Shown: positions 13,707 through 31,564, counted from the first letter of the stretch. The stretch: DNA of 58,164 nt from Minisyncoccota bacterium (GCA_025453495.1 JALOQM010000003.1:1-58164), one strand, 5' to 3'. Notes: generated by a model not told the origin, from the letters alone. Numbers and translations: made by a program.

Positions 13707-15407
13707 TTAGAAAATATTAGGTAAATTTTTAAATGCTTTTACCAGATCTTCAATAGATACTGTGTGATGAGGTATTTTTTCTTTCGTCGCAATATGTTTA
13801 AACATTTCTTGTACTCTCGGTGCTATTGTCGGTGCAGAAAATATTCCATGAGTAGAATATTGAGTACCAATTTTCTTTTGAAGATTCATAATATGATCAT
13901 GAACAGAAGCTCCTTCAGCAGACCATTGCATTGCATTTGCTCTAATTGTTGTTAATTCTAAAACATAAACATTATTCTTAATAAAGAAATACACATCTGG
14001 GTATCCTTCTTTTCCACCCAAAGCTGGGTACATGATCCCAAAATCATCAACCCTACCATTCCATATTACATCATCAATCTGACCAGAATCTTTATATGTT
14101 TTAAGTAACTTATAAAATAAGTATTCTAATCTACCACCCCTCAGTTGAGCGGTATTAAAGTCGTTTTTACCTGTTATAGAACTAACCATACTAACATGAT
14201 GAGTATATAGAGGATCATAATCCTTACTATTTATTAACTCCAGTATTTTTCTTTCTAGAGTTTGCTGATTATCCTCTTCTCTAAGATTTACTTTAGTATT
14301 AGGTAAAATAAAGTCTATCTTATCTGAAACGATTTTTCTTTTCTCAGAGTGAAACAAGGTTGCATCAGAAAAACTAAAGAAGTCGAATTTGTATTCTTCA
14401 TCTTCGAAAAGTGCAACGTTAAATATAGATGAAGCAGAAGCTACACCAGAAGAAGTTTCTTTACCTTCGGTATTGTATACACGGACATAACATTTATCAG
14501 ACATGTTAGTTTTAATTTCAACAAGCAAAGGAGGGTGTGTTCTGTTAAAATCACCAAAATATTCTACCCAAAGTCTTAAGTTATCACCAAAGTCAAAAGG
14601 TTGGACATTTTTATATGTATCAAGCACTGAAATAACTTCATTTTTTGCCTCATCTTTTATATAAAGATCACCTAGTTTTCTTTCACATAAACCAGTTGTA
14701 ACACAAAGACCAATGTAGTACCCAGCAGTAGGGGCTTGTACCAAAGTTAGATTACCAATCTCAGTACTCTTAAAGGCTTCAATTTCTGCTCTTCTTCTTT
14801 CTTCTGGTAGTTGTCTAAAGGTTTTAATTTTCTCAACTATTAAATTAAATTCGTCCTCCTTCTTCATTGAAAAAACAATATAGCCTAATTCTTCTTTTGA
14901 AAGATATTGTAATTCAAGTAATAAACGTAGTGTGACTCTAAACGGAAAAAGTAAGATATTAACACAATCTTCTCTTATTACAGGATTTGAAATCTGCAAC
15001 TTATTCATTTGGTGTTCTACAACTTCAGATTGTAAAATTTCTTTTCCATTATCTGAAACTATTTTTAAATTTTTCCCTAAACCTAAAACTGACCCATGTT
15101 TTTTAAGTAACTCGAAACCAGCATTTGTTACATGTATAGTTGATGGCGTTGTAGAGTTATCAATAACAATAAAACCTAGATATTTTATTAAAGCTTCAAG
15201 TGTTCTTCTTGCAGATGGAGATAATGGTCTTCCTCTCTCAGTAAGACCATGTCTACCGAGTAAAGTATTAAAAGCTTCCTGTTTCATTGAAGTCCAAGAT
15301 TTACCATTAAAATTATCTTGTGACAAAATTTCAACAGAACCAATTATTTGGTGAATGTTTTGTCTTTTTGGTATATGCCAAATTTCTAGACTTCTTGTTC
15401 GTGTCAT
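13707..15407 (-). CDS. Putative restriction endonuclease (last gene of the M-M-R operon)
   Basis: 566 aa. C-terminal PD...E-x-T-like motif (GYPDVYFFIKNNVYVLELTT). 2-nt spacing to the upstream methyltransferase. The call rests mostly on context. Confidence 0.45.
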   Translation of the reverse strand: MTRTRSLEIWHIPKRQNIHQIIGSVEILSQDNFNGKSWTSMKQEAFNTLLGRHGLTERGRPLSPSARRTLEALIKYLGFIVIDNSTTPSTIHVTNAGFELLKKHGSVLGLGKNLKIVSDNGKEILQSEVVEHQMNKLQISNPVIREDCVNILLFPFRVTLRLLLELQYLSKEELGYIVFSMKKEDEFNLIVEKIKTFRQLPEERRRAEIEAFKSTEIGNLTLVQAPTAGYYIGLCVTTGLCERKLGDLYIKDEAKNEVISVLDTYKNVQPFDFGDNLRLWVEYFGDFNRTHPPLLVEIKTNMSDKCYVRVYNTEGKETSSGVASASSIFNVALFEDEEYKFDFFSFSDATLFHSEKRKIVSDKIDFILPNTKVNLREEDNQQTLERKILELINSKDYDPLYTHHVSMVSSITGKNDFNTAQLRGGRLEYLFYKLLKTYKDSGQIDDVIWNGRVDDFGIMYPALGGKEGYPDVYFFIKNNVYVLELTTIRANAMQWSAEGASVHDHIMNLQKKIGTQYSTHGIFSAPTIAPRVQEMFKHIATKEKIPHHTVSIEDLVKAFKNLPNIF

Positions 15408-15409
15408 AA

Positions 15410-16705
15410 TTATTTTTCTAAAACTAATATATAATCTTTTGGTATAAAACCCCCTCGACCAGATCTTGGGATACGGAGATAGCGATTTCTAATAATGTAA
15501 GAAAAATTAAGTCTCTTTTTATATCCTACATCTTTTGCTATTTTCAACAAAATACTTGCTGTATCAACTTCAAACCCTCGAATTCTACTATTGCCCACAA
15601 CAACGCAATAAAACCCTCCCGTCTGTAAACAGTCATAAACTGATTCCAAATTCTCTTTCATTGCCTGAAAATATTTAAACGTTACCCAAGATCTTTTTTT
15701 GTCTAACGAATATATTTTAGACAAAACTTCATCAAGTTCTCCTAATCCATACACAGGAACTTCATTTAATGTTTTAACTTTTTCTGAACCTATTTGGTGA
15801 TCATAAAGTGCATCTAATTTTTTTTTATCAAAACCATCCAGCCAAAAATTCTCTAACTTTAGAGATCTAACATAATCAAAAGCATTTATGTATGGAGGAG
15901 ATGTCATTGCTAGATTAACTTTTCCTGAGACTAGCGATTTACTGTCTATTTTTCTAGCATCAAAACCAATTATTTTAACCTCAGACTTATGATTTTCAGA
16001 AAAATCTTTAACTGCATCTATGTATTTTAATAAATTTTTTAAGAACTCATCAAAAACAACCACATGGTCTTTTTTTATCTTAGTAGAAATATATGGTTTA
16101 GGTGATTGATTATCAGCTTTTGAAACTTTTCGTATTATTGATGATAAAACTATCTCTAAAAAGTTTTTTACCTTTTTATTTTTAAACTTATCAAAATTTT
16201 CATGAATCAAAAAACGAATAAGAGCTAAGTCATTTATGTTTGATTCTGAGAACCAGTAAGTAATCAAATCCTTATCAGGAATATATAAACTACATTTAGA
16301 TTTAAATTTATGTGAGTTTTTTGTTGATATATGATAACTAGATATGAAATCATTGATTATAGAAAATTCTTTAGAAGATAATGGGGTTGTCTTGACGGCA
16401 CTTAGTAATTTACTAAGAGGATCAATATCAACACCATAACTTGGATAGCCTAAAATAGATGCTTCTACTAATGTAGTTCCTGAACCCATGAATGGATCCA
16501 AAACACCATACTTTTTTGTACTTTTTGAAGCATAATTTTTTATAAACCAACGCGGGATATGCGGTATAAACTTACAGGGATATTTGAAAATGCCATGAGT
16601 GGAACTTGAAATACCTGAAGCTTTAATTAAAAAAGTATCCCCGTTTTTAGGCTTAGGTGGAATATCAGATACTTCTATAATTCTTTCTTTCTTATCATTT
16701 TCCAT
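15410..16705 (-). CDS. DNA methyltransferase (N4-C/N6-A class)
   Basis: AdoMet motif DPFMGSGTTLVEA and catalytic TSPPYINAFDY. Confidence 0.8.
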   Translation of the reverse strand: MENDKKERIIEVSDIPPKPKNGDTFLIKASGISSSTHGIFKYPCKFIPHIPRWFIKNYASKSTKKYGVLDPFMGSGTTLVEASILGYPSYGVDIDPLSKLLSAVKTTPLSSKEFSIINDFISSYHISTKNSHKFKSKCSLYIPDKDLITYWFSESNINDLALIRFLIHENFDKFKNKKVKNFLEIVLSSIIRKVSKADNQSPKPYISTKIKKDHVVVFDEFLKNLLKYIDAVKDFSENHKSEVKIIGFDARKIDSKSLVSGKVNLAMTSPPYINAFDYVRSLKLENFWLDGFDKKKLDALYDHQIGSEKVKTLNEVPVYGLGELDEVLSKIYSLDKKRSWVTFKYFQAMKENLESVYDCLQTGGFYCVVVGNSRIRGFEVDTASILLKIAKDVGYKKRLNFSYIIRNRYLRIPRSGRGGFIPKDYILVLEK

Positions 16706-16707
16706 CT

Positions 16708-18015
16708 TTAATTCTTTTCTAAATAAATAATACTTTCTCTAAGATATCCACGATATTTTTCAGTTTCCTTATATTGTTGTGAACTAGTAATAATGTTGCG
16801 AGCAACTTCAATAGAGGAAACATTAAATCCCAAGTGTTTGGCAAACTTTGCTAGAAGTAGATCTGTTGGAACAATAACGCCTCCGTATGCTGAATTACTA
16901 ACAATAATTACACAGAAGCCACCTTTCTTTAATCCATTATAAATCTCTGTCATTGATCTAAACATATCATTAAAGTATGCTTCTACCATTTTAGGAATTC
17001 TTTTATCCCAAAGTTTCTTTGATGAAAGTTTGTTAACTAAAGCCCCTAATTCTGGGACACTTTCCACTGCAAGCTTAGATTCTATTTCATAACCATTTAA
17101 ATGAGATCTTATACCTTTTTTCCTTAGAATTTTTAAATCAGAGTATTCGCTTACAAATGAGCCCATCCAAAGTTCTACTTTGTAAATTTCAGTATAATCA
17201 AAACAATTAGCATAAGGAGGTGAAAAAATAACACCTTTTATTGAGTTCTTTTTTGTGTATTTACTTAAATTAAAACAAGTATCTTCAATGACTGAAGTAT
17301 TTACTTTACCCGAAATCTCAACAGCAAAATTTAAATCACTCTGAATATCGTTAATTGATTTAAAAAATAAATTTTTAACATATTCCTGATCTCTAATAGT
17401 TTTTTTAATTGTCTTACGAAACTTTAATCCGTTACCAGCTTTCCTGTAGTTTGATGATTCTTCTAATATACTCAGCCATGCAAGCATTAATAAGTCTGAT
17501 ACTTTCTTGCTTTTTATTTGATTAATTTTTTCTTTCAAGGTTAATAGATATAGTAGAGCATCATTATCGAACAATTGCTCAATCGTTGAGAGTTTGGGTA
17601 TGTTAACCTTCTGTTTACTTTTAACTTTTTTGAGATTAGCAATCTCTTTTATAAATAAAGCAACATCTTGTTTCTTATAGTCTTGAGTCTTAACTTTTGC
17701 TAAAAATGCAGAAAAGTGATTTATTTCAAAACCAATACTATTGCACTTATTTATCTTTGCTTGAAGAAGAGTGCTTCCACTACCACAAAAAGGGTCAACT
17801 ATTAGGTCGCCTTGTTTTACGTTGTACTTAGTAAGAATTTGATCAACTAATTTAATTGAATATCCTTCCTTATAGCGATACCATCTTTGAATTGGAAGAT
17901 CTAAGTCAGAGGCATAATTAACAAGACTCTTATATGTTACAGAGTTAATTTTCGGATAATTGACATTAAAATCTTTCTCAAAAGAAAGTAAAAATTTATC
18001 GTTAAAGTTCGCCAT
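16708..18015 (-). CDS. DNA methyltransferase (N4-C/N6-A class), same architecture as the neighbouring methyltransferase
   Basis: DPFCGSGSTLLQA and FSPPYANCFDY. Confidence 0.8.
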   Translation of the reverse strand: MANFNDKFLLSFEKDFNVNYPKINSVTYKSLVNYASDLDLPIQRWYRYKEGYSIKLVDQILTKYNVKQGDLIVDPFCGSGSTLLQAKINKCNSIGFEINHFSAFLAKVKTQDYKKQDVALFIKEIANLKKVKSKQKVNIPKLSTIEQLFDNDALLYLLTLKEKINQIKSKKVSDLLMLAWLSILEESSNYRKAGNGLKFRKTIKKTIRDQEYVKNLFFKSINDIQSDLNFAVEISGKVNTSVIEDTCFNLSKYTKKNSIKGVIFSPPYANCFDYTEIYKVELWMGSFVSEYSDLKILRKKGIRSHLNGYEIESKLAVESVPELGALVNKLSSKKLWDKRIPKMVEAYFNDMFRSMTEIYNGLKKGGFCVIIVSNSAYGGVIVPTDLLLAKFAKHLGFNVSSIEVARNIITSSQQYKETEKYRGYLRESIIYLEKN

Positions 18016-18344: not shown

Positions 18345-19424
18345 CTACTTGGACTTATCCTTTACCAGCTTCAGCAGGTCTTCTTCTCGCTCATATATAC
18401 GGAACCTGCCCGAGAGTATTCCGAGACGATAGTTGATTCCATCACTCATCAAACGCCAATTGGTCTCCTCAAGATTCTTCTTCAAGATACGAGCAAGCTT
18501 TGTTCTACTGTTGTATTCGTTACTCTCGGCAGGATCTTCAATCGTAAAGCCAATAGAAACAATTGATTCCATACTTGGCTGTTCAAAAATAAGATTTGAA
18601 TACGGCTCATCCTTTAGAGTGTCCACTACGAACTGCTTTAACTGTGGCACGGTCAGTTTCTTAAGGTTGTTTATTTTGTCATATTCTTCTTTGTGCTTTT
18701 CCTTTTCCTTCTGCTCGTCCATGAATTTAGCGATTCCCTCAAGATTCGCTTTCTCATCTAAATTTTTTCTTAGAGCTTCCCCTGAGAGACAGAAACGCTC
18801 CCTATCTTTTTCATAATCGGGATCTGGAATCTCTTCCTTATGAGAGATGTCCATTTCGTCTGTTTCAACATGACCGCATTTCCCACAAGTTTCCGTGGTG
18901 ATTATTTTCTTTTCATCAACTCTCTCGCTAGTACGCTGCATTTCTCCCTCACACTTTACGCAAATGTGGGGCTTGATCTTATATTCTTCTCCATTGTTAT
19001 AGAAAGCTCGATGCGGAACACACCCATTGGGACAGTCGTACATAAAAAGTATCCTGTCTGGCTTGTCACTTGACCCGTCCATGAATATCTTACTGCTTTC
19101 GGTAGTAAGACTTTGGCATTTGGAGCATCTAATAAGCTGAGGTGCCTGTGCACTTTCATAGAATTCGTCTTTCTTCGTATCTCGTGAAATCCATTCGCTG
19201 ATAGTCTTATCCTTGTCTTCCCACCATCTAACGGTGGCATACAAAAGATCGTAATGTAGAGCAATTTCTGACACTCCTTGATAGAACTTCTCGCTTACTT
19301 TCTCCGCAAGTTCTTCACTGGGTTTAGAGTTCTTATGGAAATTTTCTCGCCATCGGCAATCATTGACGGTTAGTCGATCATAAAGATCAACGTATTCCTG
19401 TTTTGATTTTAAATATTTACTCAT
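18345..19424 (-). CDS. Double Cys4 zinc-ribbon protein of unknown function (5th gene of the operon)
   Basis: C100-x2-C103...C131-x3-C135 and C155-x2-C158...C180-x2-C183. 8-nt overlap with the upstream methyltransferase gene. Confidence 0.6.
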   Translation of the reverse strand: MSKYLKSKQEYVDLYDRLTVNDCRWRENFHKNSKPSEELAEKVSEKFYQGVSEIALHYDLLYATVRWWEDKDKTISEWISRDTKKDEFYESAQAPQLIRCSKCQSLTTESSKIFMDGSSDKPDRILFMYDCPNGCVPHRAFYNNGEEYKIKPHICVKCEGEMQRTSERVDEKKIITTETCGKCGHVETDEMDISHKEEIPDPDYEKDRERFCLSGEALRKNLDEKANLEGIAKFMDEQKEKEKHKEEYDKINNLKKLTVPQLKQFVVDTLKDEPYSNLIFEQPSMESIVSIGFTIEDPAESNEYNSRTKLARILKKNLEETNWRLMSDGINYRLGILSGRFRIYEREEDLLKLVKDKSK

Positions 19425-21042
19425 CAGCAGAAACCTTGAGGCGACGATTAACGAGCTTAGAGTAAATATGATTTATATTCTTTATCTTCTTGTCAGACAG
19501 TTTTAGCTTCTCCTTAAGCACAACTTTATCTGTAAATTTTAGGATTTCTGCCAGAGGCTTCTTATTTCTTAGCATCTCGTCTAGCTTTTCAATGTCCTTA
19601 TCTTTGATCTTGAAATACGGCACTGATATGTTCTTAAACTCATTAGGCACCAATTCCAAAACTCCGCCACCATAGTATCTACCCTCCAGTTCTGTAAAGA
19701 TAAAAGTGAGACTATTGAAGAAACAGAAAGCGAGACTTTTTATATCAAAACCATCTTTCATTGAAATACGGTAGAAGGCATCCGTTATCATGATCTTTGC
19801 ACTATTCACTAAGATTCTAGGAAATAGATTACTTCGCTTAATGAATAAGCCTTCCGAAGCCCAAACGCTTGAAACATGGAACCAATTATTCCTAATTACA
19901 CACTTGTAGCCCGTGTGTACTTTTTTTTCTTCACCAGCTTTTATATACTCTCTTACTTTCTTCGGTAGAGATTCTCCGCCTTCGTCAGGCAAAGCAAGGA
20001 GGAATACTGGCTTTCCTTTTTTTTCTAAAACTGAAAAATCATTTTGAGTTATTGAAAGCGACTGAGGTATCAACGAGCTTTTCTGCAAGATCTTTTTGAC
20101 ATAAGGTTTTAATTCAAACTTATCGACCACAGACCTGTCTACAATAAAAAAGTTGTTTGCCGCAGTAACAATACCTACTTGGACTTTTGCGTAGTCCTTA
20201 ACAGCCTTAATATCTTTCTTGAAACTATCAAGAAAGTTTAGTTCGTCTTCTGAAAGGATATAGTTGGTCCACTTATCGAGCGTATCTCGATCTATGTTGG
20301 TATTACCCGGAATAAGATGAGGCTTCTTTAAATCAGTGAGTTTATTTGCTTGGAAAAATGATACCCCTTTTTGTTTTGAAGACTTTGTTCCAATTATGAT
20401 AATCACGTCTTGTTCAATACCATCAAAAACCAGCTCATTAAAAGCGAAGACTTCAATTTTATGAAGAGTTTTTCTAAGGTAATCTCTCAATTCCTTAGCG
20501 TAAGAAACTTGAAGCAATTCAGCTGGCAATACAAAAGATATGATTCCGTTCTCTGTAAGGGACTCTACTCCGCTTATCAGAAAAGCTGTCCAAATATTCT
20601 TTATCTTCTTATCAGAAAGATTTGCTTTTTGATGGATCTTTTCACAAAGTTCCAATTGTCTTTTGGTTAAGTGATTTTTCTTTATATACGGTGGATTACC
20701 AATGACCAAATCATATTTTTTTTGATTTGTTCTTTGAAACTCGAGGAAGTCCTGTAAATGGGATTCTAATTTGATCTTTTTATTTTTTGAGCCTTTAAAA
20801 AGACTTACGGCTTTTTCAAGTTCCTCCGAATCTCTTTCCACAATATCTAAAGCCGTGTCCGTCTTCTTACTAACCGCATTATTCAATAATGACTGAATAA
20901 AAATGCCATCTCCTACGCTTGGTTCTAATACGCTGATTTTCTTTGGAAGTTTATAGAATTTGGTATCAAAAATACGCTTGACTATAAAGTCGGACATTAT
21001 TTCGGGCGTATAGTATGATCCGTTTTCTTTTTGATTAATCAT
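19417..21042 (-). CDS. Gamma-class N6-adenine DNA methyltransferase (Eco57I/TaqI-like)
   Basis: GSYYTP; AdoMet motif VLEPSVGDGIF; catalytic VIGNPPYI. A long C-terminal region is the likely target-recognition domain. Confidence 0.85.
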   Translation of the reverse strand: MINQKENGSYYTPEIMSDFIVKRIFDTKFYKLPKKISVLEPSVGDGIFIQSLLNNAVSKKTDTALDIVERDSEELEKAVSLFKGSKNKKIKLESHLQDFLEFQRTNQKKYDLVIGNPPYIKKNHLTKRQLELCEKIHQKANLSDKKIKNIWTAFLISGVESLTENGIISFVLPAELLQVSYAKELRDYLRKTLHKIEVFAFNELVFDGIEQDVIIIIGTKSSKQKGVSFFQANKLTDLKKPHLIPGNTNIDRDTLDKWTNYILSEDELNFLDSFKKDIKAVKDYAKVQVGIVTAANNFFIVDRSVVDKFELKPYVKKILQKSSLIPQSLSITQNDFSVLEKKGKPVFLLALPDEGGESLPKKVREYIKAGEEKKVHTGYKCVIRNNWFHVSSVWASEGLFIKRSNLFPRILVNSAKIMITDAFYRISMKDGFDIKSLAFCFFNSLTFIFTELEGRYYGGGVLELVPNEFKNISVPYFKIKDKDIEKLDEMLRNKKPLAEILKFTDKVVLKEKLKLSDKKIKNINHIYSKLVNRRLKVSADE

Positions 21043-21692
21043 GAGCGCCTTCTTCTAACATCAGCTAATTCGTAAGCTGGGATCTTCTTCAGATCCATCA
21101 AATGTTTCGTTACTTTGGTATTTAAATCTGTAAGCTTTTTTATTAATTTTCCAGATGTTTTACCGCCCTTAGTCACAAGTTCGCCAATCAAAACGGCATG
21201 GTCAGCATTTAGTTTTTCAAATGCCTGTCTTAAAAAATATTCTTTCCTTTCTAGAATCAGCTGGGGTCGATTGAAATACAGTCTTTCAATCATGTACTTA
21301 GAGGCAACATAAGGACCAGATACAAGTCCTGTACTTTCGCTTACTTTAAAAAGTGTTGAGTAATCAACAGTGGACGGATCAGGATATGAACTAACAGAAT
21401 GCTTCTTTTTGGGTTCGCCAGGCCAATCATTGGCCTTGAAGCGATTACATATTGGACATGCGTAAAAAAGATTACTTAAGGAGTTTTCCAAATGTGCAAA
21501 TTCTGGTTTTGATTTAGGTCGATAGTGTTCAACATGGAATGCCTGAATACCCCCTAGTGCGTTTTCATGTACTGCACAGTAAACACATCGAAAGCCCCCT
21601 TCCTCTCGAAGAAACTCTTTTACTCTTGAATCACGGCAACCATAGGATTCAATTGTAGGATTTGCTGTTTTTTGTATTAATGACCATTTCAT
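21039..21692 (-). CDS. HNH endonuclease, PtuB/TIGR02646-like
   Basis: CVYC...FHVEHYRPKSK...NLFYACPICNRFK. ATGA overlaps with both neighbouring genes. Confidence 0.75.
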   Translation of the reverse strand: MKWSLIQKTANPTIESYGCRDSRVKEFLREEGGFRCVYCAVHENALGGIQAFHVEHYRPKSKPEFAHLENSLSNLFYACPICNRFKANDWPGEPKKKHSVSSYPDPSTVDYSTLFKVSESTGLVSGPYVASKYMIERLYFNRPQLILERKEYFLRQAFEKLNADHAVLIGELVTKGGKTSGKLIKKLTDLNTKVTKHLMDLKKIPAYELADVRRRRS

Positions 21693-22366
21693 TTTTTCTT
21701 TTTCTTCAAATGCTTTTTCGCTTCCTGTTGTGTCTTCTTTATCTCTTTGATCGTTTTCTCATATTCGTCTAACAATTCTTTTCTGCTGGATAGAGCTAAT
21801 GTGGTAACAGGAATTTCCAGATTCTGCTGGATAGCTTCCGCTCTTTTCTTTTGAGCATTCGTTGCTTTGCCTTGTGCGATCTTTTTGGAAATTACTGAAA
21901 GCTCAGAAAGTTCCTTTTCATTAAGATCTAAGAAGTTCTTATAGGTACGCAAAAATCTCTCAACATACTGACTAGCTTTTGACATGAATATGTCTCGCTC
22001 TACTACTTCATCAAAAAGTGCGAAATGCTCCTTAAGCGAAGGGTCAGCAGGATGAGAAGTAACTCCATATATGGGCATGTCCTTAAACTGCTTGCGAAGT
22101 ACTCCAACAAGATCGCTTCCTTTGTAATTTGCTGTTTGCCCGTCAGCATCAGGAACCTCACCTAGACGTTCATCTACAACCAGAACTCCAACCTGCTGTT
22201 TATTTACCCAGTCAGTGTAATCTTTCAGTTTTGGGAAGGGTGCTGATTTAAGAACTGACCATTCAGTTCCTATTTCCAAATTCGTGATTGCATCTTCAAT
22301 AGCACTTGTGACAAAGTTTCTTGCGTCGACGTTATCATCAATTACTGCGATTTTTACTTTTTTCAT
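21689..22366 (-). CDS. Stand-alone receiver (REC)-like protein with a K/E-rich coiled-coil tail
   Basis: KIAVIDDN acidic pair and a VGVLVVDE acceptor-like motif. No DNA-binding or enzymatic output domain is visible. Confidence 0.6.
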   Translation of the reverse strand: MKKVKIAVIDDNVDARNFVTSAIEDAITNLEIGTEWSVLKSAPFPKLKDYTDWVNKQQVGVLVVDERLGEVPDADGQTANYKGSDLVGVLRKQFKDMPIYGVTSHPADPSLKEHFALFDEVVERDIFMSKASQYVERFLRTYKNFLDLNEKELSELSVISKKIAQGKATNAQKKRAEAIQQNLEIPVTTLALSSRKELLDEYEKTIKEIKKTQQEAKKHLKKKKK

Positions 22367-22368
22367 AA

Positions 22369-24564
22369 TTAATTAGCAGGTAACCAAACACGGAAGCGCG
22401 CTCCTTTAAGTTTCTGATCTTTAGTCACCTCCTTATCACCGCCCAGCTCTTCTACAGTATTCTTTACAATGGTGAGACCGAGCCCAGTACCTTCTTCATT
22501 TCCTGTCTTGCCCTTTTTCGTAGTGAAAAGTGGCACCCAAATCATGTCAGCAATGCTTTTATCGACCCCTGGTCCGCTATCAGCAACCACAATCTCAAAA
22601 CCTTTTCTTGAACCCTGATTTTTCTCGTAAAGCTCAATACGAATTTTTCGATCCTTTCCAACCTGGCCACAAGCACTATAAGCATTGGTTAGGAGGTTAA
22701 GAACTATAGATTCGATATCCATCACAAAAACCTTTGCATCCACTTCTTTGAGTTCTTTTATCAAATCAATCTTGATTGCCTTGAAAGCACCTTCAACTTC
22801 AGCGATCACACTTTCAATTGCACTTTTCACACTAATCTTTTGACGAGTTCTTTTATCCTTGCGTACTCGAGCCATAGCGAATGCTCCCCATGAGGAAACC
22901 TGCTTCGCATAACCAAGTGAAGTCTCAAGCTGTTCCAAAGCCCTTTTAACGTTAGGCGACTTCAAAGAAAGTGATGACTGAGCTGCGGATACACCAGATC
23001 TAAAAAGAGAAACAGCAGTTTGTGTTTCGTGACCAAATACAGCGGCTGCTATACCCACCGTTGCAAGACCACTTAAAACACGATTGTTATCAAGCAACTC
23101 CTCAAATCTGCGTTTGGTCTCTTCGGTCTTTTTAATTACCTCTGCAATTTGTCCTACCGACTCTTTGCTTTCCTTTGTGTCCTTACTTCCTAATTTAGCC
23201 TGCAACTCTTCAAGATTCTTTTGCAGATTTTCGAGATCATCCCGATATGTATCAACCTCTTCGATCAATCCGGGCTTATTTTTCTTTTCCTCAGCCTTTT
23301 TATTCTTTACAGCTCCTTCGTGTCGGTGTTTTTCAATTAAAGTTACACAAGCGAGCGTTAATGCTCTTAGATCATAGAAAGCTTCACTTTCGATCAATCC
23401 CTCTCGAGAAGCACCGTCAATTAACTGAGGATTAGTATCTCTCCCAATGGCAACAGCACCCACCATTTGGTGGGAAGAAACCTTGTAGGTTTCTCTCGAG
23501 AGACCTGCTGGGTCTCTTTCTTTTCTCTGAGCAAGACCAAGCCAGTCACCTGACGGTTCGTTGTTATAACCATAAGGCTTTACGCTGATCTGGTCTCTGT
23601 ATATTTTTATACCGAGATTCTTATCTAGAAAGTTTCGTAGACCTTTGAGACTTAGTCCCTTTTCAGCCAGAAGAGGATTATTTTTTGTACGTCCGAAAAA
23701 GAGAATATCAATGGATACAGGACCGCAACTTAGTTTGTTATTGAAGCCGACATCGGTGTTAACTCTTTGAGAAAGCTTGTCCCAAGAGATTGTGTTCGGA
23801 TATGTTCGTGTCTTTGAATCGGTCTTCTCAATTATTTTATATTTTATTTGTTGTGACTTACCATCAAAGGTTGCTTGGAGGGCTATTTCAGAAGCTTCAT
23901 AATATGACGATCTTACGGAACCGTTTAGCTCCTCTAGTAAATGGTTAGTGAATTTAATTTCAAAATCCTTAACAGCCGAGAATGGAGAAATGAGGGCGGA
24001 AAGTTCGCTGTATACCTGTTCTATATCTGTCCTCAACCAATCCTGCCTTAAATCTGAAATCAAAATTTCAGTGCCAGAGTTTCTTGCAGATTTAGGAGTT
24101 GTTATCTTATCAGTATCAGCAATTGTGACAGGGATATCAGAGAGACTCTTACCGTCAACATTGAATTGCTCCCAATTAATTGAAAGCTTCAAGGGGTTTG
24201 TCTTTTCTGATTTTGTGTTGAGAACAAGCCTCTCACCAAGACGATCTGTGGAAAGTCGTCCGATACCTTTCTCACCAGTTTTTCTTCGCGACTTCTTACT
24301 AACCTTTTTTGATCGCTTCTCAGAATATCCAATACGCAACCAATTTTCCTCAAGTTGAGTTGCGGTCATTCCGATCCCGTTGTCGGCAACACGAATACCG
24401 TCCTTGTTTATTTCAACCTCAACAATAGTTGCATCTGCATCGTAACTGTTTTTAACAAGCTCAAGCAGTGCTGTTGTAGGGTTCTTTATGCTGTCTCGCC
24501 CAAGGTTAATAATCGTACGAGCATCGATACTAAAAGACTTTATTTTATGGTTTTCCTTGGGCAT
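22369..24564 (-). CDS. Fusion of a MORC/MutL-like GHKL ATPase with a histidine-kinase transmitter (DHp + CA)
   Basis: Module 1: ELVKNSYDA (35-43), DNGIGM (61-66), GEKGIGRLS (97-105). Coiled coil at about 415-500. His box FGHETQT (H512). Module 2: LLTNAYSA (623-630), DSGPGV (662-667), GTGLGL (692-697). No TM segments. Confidence 0.8.
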   Translation of the reverse strand: MPKENHKIKSFSIDARTIINLGRDSIKNPTTALLELVKNSYDADATIVEVEINKDGIRVADNGIGMTATQLEENWLRIGYSEKRSKKVSKKSRRKTGEKGIGRLSTDRLGERLVLNTKSEKTNPLKLSINWEQFNVDGKSLSDIPVTIADTDKITTPKSARNSGTEILISDLRQDWLRTDIEQVYSELSALISPFSAVKDFEIKFTNHLLEELNGSVRSSYYEASEIALQATFDGKSQQIKYKIIEKTDSKTRTYPNTISWDKLSQRVNTDVGFNNKLSCGPVSIDILFFGRTKNNPLLAEKGLSLKGLRNFLDKNLGIKIYRDQISVKPYGYNNEPSGDWLGLAQRKERDPAGLSRETYKVSSHQMVGAVAIGRDTNPQLIDGASREGLIESEAFYDLRALTLACVTLIEKHRHEGAVKNKKAEEKKNKPGLIEEVDTYRDDLENLQKNLEELQAKLGSKDTKESKESVGQIAEVIKKTEETKRRFEELLDNNRVLSGLATVGIAAAVFGHETQTAVSLFRSGVSAAQSSLSLKSPNVKRALEQLETSLGYAKQVSSWGAFAMARVRKDKRTRQKISVKSAIESVIAEVEGAFKAIKIDLIKELKEVDAKVFVMDIESIVLNLLTNAYSACGQVGKDRKIRIELYEKNQGSRKGFEIVVADSGPGVDKSIADMIWVPLFTTKKGKTGNEEGTGLGLTIVKNTVEELGGDKEVTKDQKLKGARFRVWLPAN

Positions 24565-24641
24565 ATTTGAAGTCTGAAGTATTCGGCTGAAGAATTTACC
24601 TCATCAACAAAATCTTACCATTTTAGGCGACATTTTGGAAC

Positions 24642-25076
24642 TTAATCAATAAGCCTATGAATGGCAACGCCGCTCAGGATTTTATGCTTTTTCAGACCGT
24701 TGCACTTCCTGCATGCCAGTGTCAGGTTGCGTGGATGATTAGAACCAAAACTTTGCGAGAGCACTTTTGCACCAGCGGTGCCTGTGAGCTTACGAAGCTC
24801 CTTGTTAAGGATGTTCGATGAGAGTGGAATGATGTGATCAGGCTCGAGACCATGTGATGGACTGCATTCGGGGTGAAGCCGTAATTGGCATTCGCCGTTG
24901 TACTTTTCAACGAGATCACGCAGGACATTCTTGCTGGTCTTATCGAACTCCCACCGCTTAATTGCAGGGTGACGAAAATCAAATAGATCAGAATATGCAA
25001 CGACTAGTTGATTCGTATCTCCGTTTGCAAGTAAGTGTGAGAAGAATTCCTGATCTTCAGGAAACTCAAACTGCAT
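24642..25076 (-). CDS. Small HNH endonuclease
   Basis: C...C...EPDHIIPLS...NLTLACRKCNGLKKHK. Confidence 0.75.
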   Translation of the reverse strand: MQFEFPEDQEFFSHLLANGDTNQLVVAYSDLFDFRHPAIKRWEFDKTSKNVLRDLVEKYNGECQLRLHPECSPSHGLEPDHIIPLSSNILNKELRKLTGTAGAKVLSQSFGSNHPRNLTLACRKCNGLKKHKILSGVAIHRLID

Positions 25077-25425
25077 TTGCGATGAGCGTGATGATAGCTA
25101 TCACCACGACCACTACAACGCAGATCATTATTTTCTCTCCTCGGGAATACTTTCGGGGAGGCTCTTTTTCGGCAAGTGCTTGTTCGAGAGTCTTGCCTTG
25201 TTCAGCCAGAACTTTCTGTCCAATTGGCGAATCGAGCGGAATGAGGTTAGTCGAACCACACTTCTTGCACGTCTTATATCGTGAAAACGAACGCCAGATG
25301 GAATATATGATTCCTGGAATAATAAAGCAGAGCCAGAGAACGAGCTCAATGAGACCGTTCCCTTTGATGGCAGTTTTCGAACTGCCGATATGTCCGCAAG
25401 CGGAGCATATAAGTTTTTGTGACAT
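25066..25425 (-). CDS. Small membrane protein with a split zinc ribbon
   Basis: CSAC...TM hairpin...CKKC, plus a C-terminal TM helix (ICVVVVVVIAIITLI). 11-nt overlap with the HNH gene. Confidence 0.55.
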   Translation of the reverse strand: MSQKLICSACGHIGSSKTAIKGNGLIELVLWLCFIIPGIIYSIWRSFSRYKTCKKCGSTNLIPLDSPIGQKVLAEQGKTLEQALAEKEPPRKYSRGEKIMICVVVVVVIAIITLIANAV

Positions 25426-25827: not shown

Positions 25828-25986
25828 GTACTTACAAAATTCTCGAAAAATGAGATGGTTTTTGCGATTGCCAGAGTAAATCAGGTTGCTAGACTTCAAG
25901 TACCGAACGAGGAACTTCGAACACTTCTCTATAGGATCCCTAGACTGACACCTAAATTGTTTTAATCAAATAATTTTTTGTTACCT

Positions 25987-27282
25987 ATGGATCAGAAATC
26001 CTCTGCTCTTACTATTGAGCACGTTAAGGTTAGTGAATTAAAAGCAAACGAGTACAATCCCAAGGTTTTTGACGACCGTGCCAAGAACCAAATCGAGGAA
26101 TCGATAAAGCGGTTCGGCTTCGTTGACCCGCTCATCTGCAACAGCGCTCCGAACAGAAAGAATATTCTGATTGGTGGTCACGGCCGTCTCAAGATTGCCA
26201 AGCGACTGAAGATGAAGACCGTCCCTGTGGTCTACGTGAACATTCCCGACATCGAGCGCGAGAAAGAATTAAACGTAAGACTTCATAAGAACCAAGGTGA
26301 ATTTGACCTTGAACTTCTTGGCAAGTTCTTTGACGAAACAACACTCTCTGATGTCGGTTTCAGTGCAGAAGAACTTGAAGATATTTTTACCGAACTCGAC
26401 ACATCAAAAGACGAATTCGATACGGAGAAAGAGCTGAAGAAGATACGGAAGCCCAAGAGCAAGCGAGGTGATTTGTACCAGCTTGGACCCCATCGACTGT
26501 ACTGCGGTGATTCAACGGATATCGAATCGGTAAAGAAAGTTGTCGGTGATGAGAAGATCGATATGGTCTACAACGACCCAATCTACAATACCAAATGGCT
26601 TTCGTACGGCTCTGGTGTCGGTGGAAAGAAAAACTACGGTGGTACGGTGGACGACAACAAGACGGACGACGAGTATGCGGACTTCCTGACCAAGACGATG
26701 GAGAACGCCCTGTCGGTCTGCAACAAGGACGCTCACATATTCTATTACTGTGACGAGACCTACGTCCCGATGGTTGCGAGCCTGTACCAGAAGCTCGGAA
26801 TAGACTTCAAGCGTATCTGTCTGTGGCTCAAAGGTATAGCAAACCCAGTGCCTCAAGTTGCCTTCTCAAAGGTATACGAACCATGTGTATACGGGACAGT
26901 CGGCAAACCATACCTTTCGGGCAACCACACCAACTATGACGAGGTGCTGAACAAAGACATTGGTACTGGCGTGGAGATGATTGAGAACTTCCTTGAGATG
27001 GTGAATGTGTGGGCGGTTCAGAGACTCGGAGGAAACGCCTACGAGCACCCTACCGAGAAGCCTGTCACGCTCCACGACAAACCAATCAAAAGGTGCACGA
27101 AGATTGGCGGAAGCATCCTGTCTCTGTTTGGCGGAAGTGGTGGTGAGCTGATTGCGGCGCACCAGCTCAAGCGAAGGTGCTTCATGGTTGAGATCGAACC
27201 TGTCTTCGTAGATCTCATCATCAGGCGATGGGAAGCTCTCACGGGTGAAAAAGCTGTAAAGATTAGCTCGCATGAAGTTTAG
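25987..27282 (+). CDS. ParB-like nuclease domain fused to a beta-class DNA methyltransferase
   Basis: N-terminus ...GGHGRLKIAKRL (ParB/Srx fold). Motif IV variant NDPIYN precedes motif I LFGGSGGELIAAHQL. ATG 25987 is preferred over the ORF-track TTG 25978. Confidence 0.8.
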   Translation: MDQKSSALTIEHVKVSELKANEYNPKVFDDRAKNQIEESIKRFGFVDPLICNSAPNRKNILIGGHGRLKIAKRLKMKTVPVVYVNIPDIEREKELNVRLHKNQGEFDLELLGKFFDETTLSDVGFSAEELEDIFTELDTSKDEFDTEKELKKIRKPKSKRGDLYQLGPHRLYCGDSTDIESVKKVVGDEKIDMVYNDPIYNTKWLSYGSGVGGKKNYGGTVDDNKTDDEYADFLTKTMENALSVCNKDAHIFYYCDETYVPMVASLYQKLGIDFKRICLWLKGIANPVPQVAFSKVYEPCVYGTVGKPYLSGNHTNYDEVLNKDIGTGVEMIENFLEMVNVWAVQRLGGNAYEHPTEKPVTLHDKPIKRCTKIGGSILSLFGGSGGELIAAHQLKRRCFMVEIEPVFVDLIIRRWEALTGEKAVKISSHEV

Positions 27283-27841
27283 TAGCGAGATAGTAACCCA
27301 AGTCCTCAAGGAACTCGAGAAGGTGCCGAATATCCGCTATGTGAGCTCGAAGGTAGGCATAGACCATAGCACCTTCTACAGGTGGCTTATAAAGTACCCG
27401 AGCTTTAACAAGCGTGTGATGGAGGCAACATTCATTGGAAAGCGTGCTGTGTGCGGTACTGCCGAAGCAACCATCATTAAAGGTGTACAGAACGGTGATT
27501 TCAAAGCTTCCACCTTCTACCTGACACATAATGACCCGAACTACATGCAGAAGGACAAGGGCGAACACTTCAGCAAGATGCTCGACAACCAGGTGAGGTT
27601 CATGCAGTCGCGAATCAAGTATGACGGAGCGAACTTTGAGACACTCTTCAAGTTGCTCGATGAACTGAATAAAACGTACGGAGAGGAAGTTAGCGTGAAC
27701 TTAGGAAAGTTCATGGTCGAGTTCTTCTGCAACAATGACACCCAACTCATTGAGCTATGCAACGCATCATACGAGGAATGGCGAATCAGAAAGACGAGAG
27801 AGGAAGCAATTAAGGAAAGCTTTGTTCCAGAGGAAAAGTAA
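27272..27841 (+). CDS. HTH protein resembling a phage terminase small subunit
   Basis: VSSKVGIDHSTFYRWL HTH. ...GDFKASTFYLTHNDPNYMQKD resembles the TerS-type ..FWLKN..P motif. Weak call. Confidence 0.35.
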   Translation: MKFSSEIVTQVLKELEKVPNIRYVSSKVGIDHSTFYRWLIKYPSFNKRVMEATFIGKRAVCGTAEATIIKGVQNGDFKASTFYLTHNDPNYMQKDKGEHFSKMLDNQVRFMQSRIKYDGANFETLFKLLDELNKTYGEEVSVNLGKFMVEFFCNNDTQLIELCNASYEEWRIRKTREEAIKESFVPEEK

Positions 27842-27891: not shown

Positions 27892-29217
27892 ATGCAAACT
27901 AGCGTAAGTGCCCAAATAGGGGTTCCAGAGTCCGTACCTGTTGAGAGGGTGCGTTATTGCCTGTATGCCCGTAAATCGACTGAATCGGATGAAAAACAGG
28001 CTCTATCCATTGATTCTCAGGTGAAAGAAATGCTTGCCATAGCGGAGCGTGAGGGTCTTGAAATTGTGGACATACGGCGTGAATCGCATTCAGCGAAGGC
28101 TTCGGGACAACGTCCTGTATTCAATGAGCTTATCCGTGATCTTAACAGTGGCAGGTACACTGGCATTTTGACATGGGCACCAGACCGCCTTTCTCGAAAT
28201 GCAGGAGATCTTGGAACACTGGTTGATTTAATGGACGAGAAGAGACTTCATCAGATAAGGACGTACGGACAATCATTTCAAAACTCACCGAGTGAGAAGT
28301 TTCTGCTCATGATCCTCTGTAGTCAAGCAAAGCTCGAGAATGATAATAAAAGCATCAATGTGAAGCGAGGTTTGAAAACCCGATGCGAGATGGGTCTGTG
28401 GCCAGCTCCTGCGCCTATGGGCTATTTAAACGAAATGCGGGCTGATCGTAAGGGATATGTCTATGTTGATCCAGAACGAGGGCATATCATCCGCCAGATG
28501 TTCGAGAAGGTGGCCTATCAGAAATGGTCTGGACGCAAAGTCTATCACTGGCTCAAATTTGATATGAACTTCAAGTCTCCTAAGGGCAATAAGGGTCTCA
28601 ATCTCAGTACGATATTCCTTATCCTCCAAAACCCTTTCTACTATGGTGCGTTCGAGTTTCCGAGAAAAAGCGGAAACTGGTACAAAGGCAGACATGAAGC
28701 ATTAATAACCAAAGAATTATTTGATCAGGTACAGCAACAGATGAAAGCCCAATTTAGCAGGACGTGGGACAAGGAATTCGCTTTTACCAAGTTGATGCTC
28801 TGCGGTCTGTGTGGATCGGGTATTTGTGCTGACGAGAAGTTTAAAAAGCTAAAGAACGGCAGTATCAGTCGACATTGTTATTATGGCTGTACAAAAGCAC
28901 GAGACAAAAATTGCAAGTGCGGGTATATATCGGAAGATGAACTTATAGAACAACTGATTGCGCTAATGGATACGATAGATATCAACGAGGTCGGAATCAA
29001 AGAAAAGATAAAAGACGAGGTGAAGAAGATTAAGCGGTTTCAGCAAAGCTTGCTTGGCATCAAAGAGAATATTGATGTGAATGATATTGATATTCGAGCA
29101 TATACAAAATACATTTTGAAAGATGGATCAATTACAGAAAAACGTGAGTTGCTTGGGTGTCTTACAAGCAGAATCACACTCAATCAAAAGAAAATTAGTT
29201 TACTTCATCAACAATAA
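27892..29217 (+). CDS. Large serine recombinase (integrase)
   Basis: Resolvase catalytic region YCLYARKSTESDE...DRLSRN. Recombinase domain. Cys-rich zinc ribbon (CGLCGS...C) and a coiled-coil tail. 441 aa. Confidence 0.85.
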   Translation: MQTSVSAQIGVPESVPVERVRYCLYARKSTESDEKQALSIDSQVKEMLAIAEREGLEIVDIRRESHSAKASGQRPVFNELIRDLNSGRYTGILTWAPDRLSRNAGDLGTLVDLMDEKRLHQIRTYGQSFQNSPSEKFLLMILCSQAKLENDNKSINVKRGLKTRCEMGLWPAPAPMGYLNEMRADRKGYVYVDPERGHIIRQMFEKVAYQKWSGRKVYHWLKFDMNFKSPKGNKGLNLSTIFLILQNPFYYGAFEFPRKSGNWYKGRHEALITKELFDQVQQQMKAQFSRTWDKEFAFTKLMLCGLCGSGICADEKFKKLKNGSISRHCYYGCTKARDKNCKCGYISEDELIEQLIALMDTIDINEVGIKEKIKDEVKKIKRFQQSLLGIKENIDVNDIDIRAYTKYILKDGSITEKRELLGCLTSRITLNQKKISLLHQQ

Positions 29218-31490: not shown

Positions 31491-31564
31491 TGGCTGCGGG
31501 TCAGGGACTCGAACCCCAATACCATGCTCCAGAGGCATGTGTCCTACCATTAGACGAACCCGCA
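31491..31564 (-). tRNA. tRNA-Gln (anticodon CTG), CCA encoded
   Basis: Manual cloverleaf: acceptor TGCGGGT/ACCCGCA (U1-A72), D stem GTCT/GGAC, anticodon stem CATGC/GCATG with loop CT-CTG-GA, T loop TTCGAGT, discriminator G, then CCA. Confidence 0.9.

Follow-up and report, generated by a model that had tools for sequence, protein, structure and literature searches.

A four-gene operon headed by a soluble ATPase-kinase fusion

The 58,164-nucleotide (nt) stretch analysed here, referred to as the window (Minisyncoccota bacterium, GCA_025453495.1; JALOQM010000003.1:1-58164), encodes a soluble protein of 731 amino acids (aa) in which a MORC/MutL-like GHKL ATPase module is joined to a histidine-kinase core. 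The gene is the first of a translationally coupled, single operon of four genes, composed of the kinase, a receiver (REC), an HNH nuclease and an N6-adenine (m6A) methylase (Table 1). The original prediction, which described the kinase as two Bergerat-fold ATPase modules in one protein, did not cover the three downstream genes, and it is these that define the function. The cassette is an Ambrosia-like, HEF_HK-type paraMORC-kinase system of a Paceibacterota-like genome, apparently borne by a serine-recombinase element. This architecture is already known, having been catalogued in 2021 (PMC8011034), and a homologous system, Ambrosia, was shown in 2025 to stop phages (bioRxiv 10.1101/2025.09.30.679545). 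The promoter-like match in the gap upstream of the kinase is a weak candidate, as such matches are no more numerous in the region than in shuffles.

Table 1. Features of the cassette, the domains of its kinase and the surrounding genes (window coordinates).
Feature	Position	Strand	Remarks
Kinase open reading frame (ORF), AbrB-like soluble paraMORC-like GHKL/histidine-kinase fusion, 731 aa	22369-24564	minus	ATG start, intact
Kinase: N-terminal Bergerat-fold ATPase domain, residues 11-190	23995-24534	minus	N box E35/N39; G1 D61-G63-G65; G2 G97-K99-G100-G102
Kinase: middle α/β region, residues 191-393, probable S5-like transducer	23386-23994	minus	AlphaFold2 (AF2), Foldseek, conservation
Kinase: K/E-rich coiled-coil linker, residues 394-500, from the ATPase module to the dimerisation and histidine phosphotransfer (DHp) region	23065-23385	minus	AF2 helices
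Kinase: DHp-like helical hairpin, residues 501-570, predicted phospho-acceptor H512-E513	22855-23064	minus	HK853 alignment, AF2
Kinase: catalytic and ATP-binding (CA) domain, residues 575-731	22372-22842	minus	N623/N627; D662-x-G664-x-G666; G692-x-G694-x-G696
Receiver adaptor, AbrC-like, 225 aa	21689-22366	minus	Start 2 nt past the kinase stop codon
PtuB-like HNH endonuclease, AbrD-like, 217 aa, helical C-terminal tail	21039-21692	minus	ATGA overlap with the receiver stop codon
Eco57I/PglX-type gamma-class N6-adenine methyltransferase, 541 aa	19417-21042	minus	NPPY 116-119; ATGA overlap with the HNH stop codon
Promoter-like match TTGATT-18 nt-TAAAAT	24620-24649	minus	Consensus scan only; 77-nt gap upstream of the kinase start (24565-24641)
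144-aa protein with C-terminal HNH motif	24642-25076	minus	Directly upstream of the kinase
119-aa protein, zinc ribbon and transmembrane by look of sequence	25066-25425	minus	Weak Pmp3 match
ParB_N-methylase fusion	25978-27282	plus	
Sf6-type small-terminase-like gene	27272-27841	plus	
Large serine recombinase	27892-29217	plus	
tRNA-Gln	31491-31564		
359-aa ORF	18345-19424	minus	Overlaps the cassette methylase stop codon by 8 nt
AlwI-like restriction endonuclease, 566 aa	13707-15407	minus	
Two N6/N4 methylases	15410-16705 and 16708-18015	minus	

Domain organisation and predicted structure of the kinase

String search recovers both sets of N, G1 and G2 motifs claimed by the original prediction, composed of ELVKNSYDA (35-43), DNGIGM (61-66) and GEKGIGRLS (97-105) in the N-terminal set, and LLTNAYSA (624-631, earlier placed at 623), DSGPGV (662-667) and GTGLGL (692-697) in the C-terminal set. 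The atypical His box between them is also present, with AAAVFGHETQTAV occupying residues 506-518 and H512 encoded by the CAC codon at 23029-23031.

At the N terminus, Pfam HATPase_c_3 covers residues 30-149 (E 7e-23), while the best sequence match is the NCBIfam BbrUII/HgiDII restriction-enzyme N-terminus, extending over residues 11-189 (E 6e-26); the PADLOC model REase_II matches the same region (E 6e-12). A family profile additionally matches MutL, PMS1/PMS2 and MORC3 between the N box and G1 (E 1e-5 to 7e-8). Residues 190-393 are covered by no Pfam family and carry the near-invariant motifs Y322-R-D, V-K329-P-Y-G, D340-W and R387-E-G. The linker gives only low-complexity or coiled-coil noise in the Pfam scan. 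Towards the C terminus, residues 510-730 align to residues 27-247 of HK853 in a phmmer search of PDB sequences, with FGHETQT opposite ISHELRT, so that H512-E513 falls on the phospho-acceptor His-Glu of HK853; the family-profile search raises the histidine-kinase match to E 1e-18. Pfam HATPase_c occupies residues 616-730 (E 3.5e-24). The two GHKL domains belong to different Pfam families and resemble each other only marginally (28% over 65 aa), and a recent duplication within the gene was therefore rejected as their source. The highest-scoring 19-residue Kyte-Doolittle window reaches 1.29, in agreement with the predicted lack of a transmembrane helix, and the Pfam scan detects no PAS, GAF or other sensor domain, as had been stated.

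The AF2 monomer model of the kinase, built from 30 homologues, has a mean predicted local distance difference test (pLDDT) score of 75.6. It places an α/β region from residue 1 to ~390 and an α/β domain from residue 575 to the end, connected by helices 394-428, 433-458 and 464-532, the last of which contains H512, and a return helix 539-567. These helices are predicted to form a coiled-coil linker followed by a DHp-like hairpin. The middle region (191-393) is modelled as strands and helices with pLDDT mostly at 75-92. In Foldseek searches against the PDB, the C-terminal half resembles DHp-CA structures, HK853 among them (E down to 7.5e-14; template-modelling score, TMt, ~0.66), and the N-terminal half resembles the ATPase modules of SMCHD1, MORC3, MORC2 and Hsp90 over 456-514 columns (E ~1e-10; TMt 0.38-0.48). 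The N terminus thus models as a GHKL fold, with MORC3, MORC2, SMCHD1 and Hsp90 as its structural neighbours, and H512 lies inside the DHp-like hairpin. The structural part of the original prediction was therefore right: a soluble protein in which a MORC/MutL-like GHKL module is followed by a coiled coil, a DHp containing H512 and a histidine-kinase-type CA domain.

Conservation and spread of the kinase family

Conservation was scored over 239 full-length kinase relatives, spanning 27-97% identity. Within the N-terminal site, G97, G100 and G102 are present in all 239, K99 in 238, E35 and D61 in 237 and N39 in 235, with G63 and G65 each in at least 235. H512 is invariant (239/239) and E513 is kept in 235; in the CA site N623, N627, G694 and G696 each occur in every sequence, and D662, G664, G666 and G692 are conserved as well. 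Because the catalytic residues of both ATP sites are nearly invariant across these relatives, both sites are under selection.

The word-indexed search returned 1964 proteins at E≤1e-5. The best 120 of the 1964 all carry PF13589; apart from one truncated protein (P0018, 609 aa), they also contain PF02518 and have the full length of ~720-775 aa. An exhaustive search of cluster representatives gave 1186 clusters (50% identity) at E≤1e-30 and 4469 at E≤1e-10, and a scan of one genome per species placed relatives in at least 549 species. These belong to Paceibacterota, Bacteroidota, Gemmatimonadota, Planctomycetota, Cyanobacteria, Actinomycetota, Acidobacteriota and Proteobacteria, together with one Nitrosopumilaceae archaeon; the closest homologues, at 75-82% identity, are encoded by Paceibacterota metagenome-assembled genomes (MAGs). 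An architecture found in more than 1000 sequence clusters and published in 2021 (PMC8011034) is not the unusual one that had been supposed. It is not described in the DefensePredictor, BREX or NTP-conflict-system literature checked for it. A phage origin was rejected, since among 50,697 phage records the kinase has only two weak partial matches.

Distant relatives are also found on 61 plasmids, 41 of them from Campylobacter and 48 predicted to be conjugative. They mostly match only the N-terminal ~400 residues, at 24-33% identity; examples are CP120313.1 (Campylobacter jejuni) and NZ_CP063918.1 (Klebsiella variicola).

Receiver, nuclease and methylase

The receiver carries the predicted phospho-acceptor D65 (codon 22172-22174), the acidic pair D10-D11 and T103, and matches Pfam Response_reg weakly (E 0.0075). 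Its AF2 model, built from 23 sequences (pLDDT 82.9), consists of a (βα)5 fold followed by three helices (131-164, 170-182 and 193-223), giving an all-helical C-terminal domain from ~125 to 225. Foldseek ranks the PhoP, HupR and NtrX receiver domains highest (TMt 0.73-0.79), with good matches for the REC part only; Pfam detects no DNA-binding domain and the model contains no wing strands.

The HNH protein, the probable effector, matches Pfam HNH (E 9e-6) and PADLOC PtuB (E 1.2e-18) and is closest to PtuB and retron-type HNH models. The methylase contains Pfam Eco57I, N6_Mtase and M_Eco57I_C, the last a target-recognition-like domain, and matches PADLOC MTase_II at E 1e-153. Across the cassette, the PADLOC scan yields REase_II at the kinase N-terminus, a weak MzaB match, PtuB and MTase_II, with neither Detocs nor any other complete system. 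Septu (PtuAB) was considered on account of the PtuB matches and rejected, since no PtuA-like ATPase gene is present in the cassette.

Ambrosia, validated in Pseudomonas aeruginosa anti-phage defence by van den Berg et al., is composed of AbrR, a HipB-like XRE regulator; AbrA, an N6 methyltransferase; AbrB, a 'histidine kinase/HSP90-like ATPase'; AbrC, a REC protein; and AbrD, an HNH protein (bioRxiv 10.1101/2025.09.30.679545). All of its genes are needed, and AbrB N40A, AbrC D60A and AbrD H60A each abolish defence (bioRxiv 10.1101/2025.09.30.679545). BLASTP against the Ambrosia sequences of Table S1 of that preprint, in which AbrB is published as its first 399 aa, aligns the kinase to this part of AbrB at 36% identity (E 4e-72), the receiver to AbrC at 25% (E 5e-9) and the HNH protein to AbrD at 31% (E 6e-16). 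Homologues of AbrB, AbrC and AbrD are thus encoded together here with the mutated catalytic residues aligned: N39 opposite N40, D65 opposite D60 and H56 opposite H60. The full AbrB (747 aa) has the same Pfam pair, HATPase_c_3 and HATPase_c; AbrC scores 63 bits against the REC hidden Markov model (HMM) of the window clade; and AbrD, like the window nuclease, matches PtuB and retron HNH models. The methylase relationship is weak (23% identity to AbrA, E 8e-5), both being gamma-class N6-adenine enzymes. By alignment, the kinase, receiver and HNH protein are homologous to AbrB, AbrC and AbrD, the methylase appears to be a more remote homologue of AbrA, and the cassette is a distant relative of Ambrosia. 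The alignment also indicates that AbrB N40A hits the Mg-binding Asn of the N-terminal MORC-like ATPase, equivalent to N39; this mutant is the only experimental evidence bearing on the functional need for the N-terminal module.

A constant kinase-receiver pair with exchangeable probable effectors

Comparison of 82 loci around kinase relatives reveals a fixed core. Every relative with at least 38% identity encodes the kinase, a receiver (~205-240 aa) and an HNH protein (~205-225 aa) in this order, and all 28 close relatives keep it, with gaps of at most 10 nt between kinase and receiver and at most 4 nt between receiver and HNH. The methylase lies directly 3' of the HNH gene in 20 of these 28, with a gap of 0 nt or less; in the others it occupies another place in the locus or was not detected. 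An Eco57I-type methylase is directly downstream in 33/40 relatives; in 4 of 42 loci an N6 methylase instead lies directly upstream of the kinase, and an XRE-type helix-turn-helix (HTH) gene precedes the kinase in ~7/42.

Among the 78 proteins in the receiver position ('+1'), D65 is invariant (78/78) and D10, T103 and P98 are nearly so; Response_reg is matched by 33 and Response_reg_2 by three. An HMM of the receiver C-terminal domain, searched against all '+1' proteins, matches its own clade only, whatever the effector. The gene in the '+2' position, scored across 67 loci, encodes an HNH protein in 46; 14 loci have a metallo-β-lactamase fold there and 4 a C5 methylase. The probable effector is modular, swapped between clades while the kinase-receiver pair stays. 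The C5 methylases of these four loci match the description of 2021.

Loci with a metallo-β-lactamase '+2' gene of ~340 aa (L040, L043, L045-L047, L050, L053, L059, L062, L068, L069, L071 and L073) are attributed to cyanobacteria on the length of that gene, and look like an effector swap on the same signalling chassis. Actinobacterial, acidobacterial and other distant relatives have a longer '+1' gene of 355-400 aa (L036-L038, L042, L049, L056, L061, L063-L065, L075-L077, L079 and L082) that keeps the invariant Asp and adds a large region without a Pfam match, possibly a receiver fused to a further effector. Further immune-type genes directly follow the cassette in some relatives: a Chitinophaga locus has a caspase-like Peptidase_C14 protein immediately after the cassette (L001 13166-14557). 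Two Akkermansiaceae MAGs encode proteins of ~1060 aa after it (L028 7176-10373 and L030 3693-6860, both on the minus strand), which are taken to be the two members giving TIR/SEFIR and NACHT/NB-ARC matches.

Genomic neighbourhood and mobility

Nucleotide homology to the two closest genomes, both Paceibacterota MAGs, covers 19463-24567 of the window; it begins 3 nt upstream of the kinase start and stops a little short of the methylase 3' end. Because it spans just these four genes, the mobile unit is exactly the cassette. Each of the two MAGs has, directly beside the cassette, a serine recombinase (L003 13153-14457; L004 13160-14560) that is 57-59% identical to the large serine recombinase of the window. 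Since the window recombinase resembles those abutting the cassette in the MAGs, the cassette is apparently carried as cargo by a mobile element of the serine-recombinase kind.

The 144-aa and 119-aa upstream proteins lie beside the cassette in no relative examined, and the 144-aa HNH protein was rejected as a part of the system on its absence from all related loci. On the other side, the 359-aa ORF has no match in PADLOC, NCBIfam or PDB sequences and only a weak TackOD1 match in Pfam. It was rejected as a fifth component, being absent from 82/82 related loci, with homology to the closest loci ending inside the methylase; insertion of an orphan effector or a restriction-like gene between the two restriction-modification (R-M) units is one possibility. 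Beyond it, the AlwI-like endonuclease and two methylases (13707-18015) constitute a separate R-M system with a type IIS two-methylase layout, located in the lowest-GC part of the window (0.29-0.32).

A proposed phosphorelay to the nuclease

We consider it probable, short of secure, that the kinase is the sensor of a four-gene R-M-related defence cassette, in which the ATPase module provides the input, a phosphoryl group passes from H512 to D65, and the HNH nuclease is the output under post-translational control. Judged by their motifs, both the MORC/MutL-like ATPase module and the HisKA-type core, composed of H512 and the CA domain, appear catalytically complete. ATP-dependent dimerisation or clamping is established for the superfamily, in MutL, GyrB, Hsp90 and MORC. 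In the proposed sequence of events, invading DNA would trigger ATP-dependent dimerisation or clamping of the N-terminal modules and thereby a register change in the coiled coil, which would cause the C-terminal CA domain to phosphorylate H512 in trans. The phosphoryl group would then move to D65, and the phospho-receiver, via its all-helical C-terminal domain, would license DNA cleavage by the HNH nuclease. Reading of the trigger may also involve the methylase, whose Eco57I/PglX-type recognition domain could give site specificity; in type IIG enzymes and BREX, members of this lineage recognise the site both for restriction and for modification. The methylase, a conserved core gene product, may thus act as a specificity subunit, signalling to the kinase that a site is unmodified.

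Direct post-translational control of the nuclease is favoured over transcriptional control because the receiver has no recognisable DNA-binding domain, because the operon leaves no room for an internal promoter, because clades differ in their effector gene but share the kinase-receiver pair, and because the XRE regulator that could explain Ambrosia induction is absent here and in most relatives. The original prediction had cast the N-terminal module as the input of an ATP- or DNA-clamp-driven kinase. Its role as input is plausible, given the near-invariance of E35, N39, D61, G63 and G65 and the loss of defence in AbrB N40A, while the DNA-clamp part draws on analogy.

Several points weigh against the proposed relay. 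In the monomer model, pLDDT falls below 50 at kinase residues 488-512, around H512, a drop to be expected when a DHp is modelled as a monomer. Foldseek matches, whose TM scores are modest (0.38-0.48), are the basis of the probable S5-like assignment for residues 191-393. A DNA-sensing role of the N-terminal module is plausible by analogy with MutL, MORC and paraMORC proteins and by likeness to the N-terminus of GHKL restriction enzymes. HEF_HK and Response_reg_2, the families of the published pair, are below threshold or absent on the window proteins. Ambrosia reporters that replace abrA or abrD show hardly any expression at rest but strong expression upon infection, and the preprint gives AbrC a REC plus a winged HTH (wHTH), which together favour a transcriptional output (bioRxiv 10.1101/2025.09.30.679545). 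Phage grown on an AbrA-expressing host remains restricted, arguing against simple methylation-based self-marking (bioRxiv 10.1101/2025.09.30.679545). The sensitivity of such phage is compatible with the methylase as specificity subunit, if AbrA is inactive alone.

Alternative readings of the cassette

In the transcriptional model, put forward both for Ambrosia and by the 2021 authors, the kinase senses infection and phosphorylates the receiver, and the phospho-receiver acts as a transcription factor that turns on the HNH and methylase genes, so that effector abundance, not activity, is what is controlled. It draws on the infection-induced reporters and the described wHTH of AbrC (bioRxiv 10.1101/2025.09.30.679545), and the three-helix C-terminal domain of the receiver could in principle bind DNA. 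However, the cassette genes abut or overlap, with gaps of at most 10, 4 and 0 nt, and therefore the HNH and methylase genes have no separate promoter and only autoregulation of the whole operon is possible. Neither Pfam nor the model provides the receiver with a DNA-binding domain or a β wing, and Foldseek supports its REC part only. The induction of Ambrosia could moreover come from its XRE repressor AbrR, which is absent in the window, and an HTH gene lies upstream in only ~7/42 relatives. We regard the model as rather unlikely for this cassette, while granting it real weight. Because the homologous window receiver is predicted to be a REC domain plus three helices without a β wing, the wHTH assignment of AbrC may itself need re-examination.

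HisKA kinases with an H-E/D-x-x-T/N motif generally have both kinase and phosphatase activity, and the motif here is H512-E-T-Q-T, which would suit an inverted polarity, with a constitutively active kinase and a phospho-receiver holding the nuclease off until infection puts the enzyme into phosphatase mode. AbrC D60A, which loses defence and is not constitutively active or toxic, behaves in the opposite way to an inhibitory phospho-receiver (bioRxiv 10.1101/2025.09.30.679545). In a variant, the MORC-like module would mainly be a DNA-looping motor of the restriction complex, with the His-Asp pair only as its brake: paraMORC GHKL+S5 proteins have been proposed to loop DNA in R-M systems (PMC2292703), and the near-invariant catalytic Glu E35 (237/239) implies real ATP turnover. 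The cassette, though, encodes no helicase or other motor partner, and we judge inverted polarity or a motor role improbable. Very hard to credit is an ordinary cytoplasmic two-component system for a metabolic or stress signal that sits beside R-M genes by chance, even though the family is annotated merely as 'ATP-binding protein' or 'sensor histidine kinase' and its founding HEF_HK member was found through induction during plant infection (PMC8011034). Kinase, receiver and nuclease are kept together in Paceibacterota, Bacteroidota, Gemmatimonadota, Planctomycetota, TM6, Elusimicrobia and Proteobacteria; a serine recombinase accompanies the cassette, and distant relatives reside on plasmids, most of them predicted to be conjugative; and the homologous Ambrosia protects against phages (bioRxiv 10.1101/2025.09.30.679545).

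Within the favoured post-translational reading, a bolder form has the restriction decision relayed as a phosphoryl group instead of being made by a nuclease reading DNA, from the MORC-like ATP-driven clamp, which would detect unmodified or invading DNA (possibly with the methylase as site reader), through the His-Asp pair to direct activation of a non-specific PtuB-like HNH nuclease by protein-protein contact. We put this forward as a possible but tentative proposal. If true, it would contradict the transcriptional model proposed for Ambrosia, and would make this the first GHKL ATPase domain to serve as the sensory input of a histidine kinase.

Comparison with known systems

Detocs, which Rousset et al. 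are said to have reported in 2023, is reportedly a defensive two-component system that uses a His-Asp phosphorelay in anti-phage immunity, with a receiver-linked effector. The cassette differs from it in the sensor, here a MORC-like ATPase, in the effector, here an HNH protein in trans, and in the presence of a methylase; no PADLOC Detocs model matches any cassette protein.

The GHKL type II enzymes of the BbrUII/HgiDII family (NCBIfam NF050001; PADLOC REase_II PDLC03485 and PDLC03419) match only the first ~180 residues of the kinase. Because this family is the best match for residues 11-189, the N-terminal ATPase is assigned to the lineage found in ATPase-bearing restriction enzymes. The remaining ~470 aa of these enzymes, presumably recognition and nuclease regions, are replaced in the kinase by the coiled coil, DHp and CA domain, with the nuclease supplied in trans.

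The paraMORC families of GHKL+S5 proteins in R-M operons, including an HNH association, were defined in 2008 by Iyer, Abhiman and Aravind, and a histidine-kinase fusion was not described there (PMC2292703). The kinase resembles them in its intact N-terminal GHKL motifs, followed by an α/β region aligning to MORC/SMCHD1 modules, and in sharing an operon with a methylase and an HNH nuclease. Unlike in paraMORC proteins, its C-terminal extension is a complete histidine-kinase core, not a nuclease or TIR, and there is no SF-II helicase partner.

Soluble proteins composed of HATPase_c_3, a new DHp family, HEF_HK (PF19191), and HATPase_c were described in 2021 by Bellieny-Rabelo et al.; 91.6% are linked to a receiver-like gene, Response_reg_2 (PF19192), R-M genes are enriched nearby, and a paraMORC relationship was proposed (PMC8011034). 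The arrangement HATPase_c_3 + DHp + HATPase_c is their 'group 1', with 174/222 sequences (PMC8011034). The window system is like these pairs in overall architecture, solubility, the adjacent receiver-like gene and the R-M-rich neighbourhood. Direct Pfam membership was rejected: over residues 503-549 the kinase scores 12.6 bits against HEF_HK, under the cutoff of 24.1 (E 0.19), and the receiver has no Pfam Response_reg_2 match. On these grounds the window kinase is placed in a sister lineage and not among the seed-set members. The neighbouring genes also differ, the published set having mostly C5 methylases, Vsr and HNH_2 and the window clade a PtuB-like HNH and an Eco57I-type m6A methylase.

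Relative to Ambrosia, the gene order is B-C-D-A, with the methylase last, instead of R-A-B-C-D, with the methylase first; the Ambrosia order is found in only ~4/42 relatives of the window kinase. The methylases belong to different subfamilies, a 541-aa enzyme with an Eco57I C-terminal domain here and the 448-aa AbrA in Ambrosia, and no AbrR-like XRE or other HTH ORF was found upstream of the kinase in the window. Ambrosia was delimited with HMM bit-score thresholds of 100 for AbrA, 500 for AbrB, 150 for AbrC and 200 for AbrD and reported in Gammaproteobacteria only (bioRxiv 10.1101/2025.09.30.679545). The hosts of the window clade, which include candidate-phyla bacteria, Bacteroidota and many others, are far wider in range, and a cassette apparently borne by a serine-recombinase element in a small-genome Paceibacterota-like bacterium adds to the mobile defence known from candidate-phyla bacteria. 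Lacking the XRE regulator, the window cassette is a cleaner, minimal four-gene version of the system for separating post-translational from transcriptional control, and this minimal version argues against the transcriptional model published for Ambrosia.

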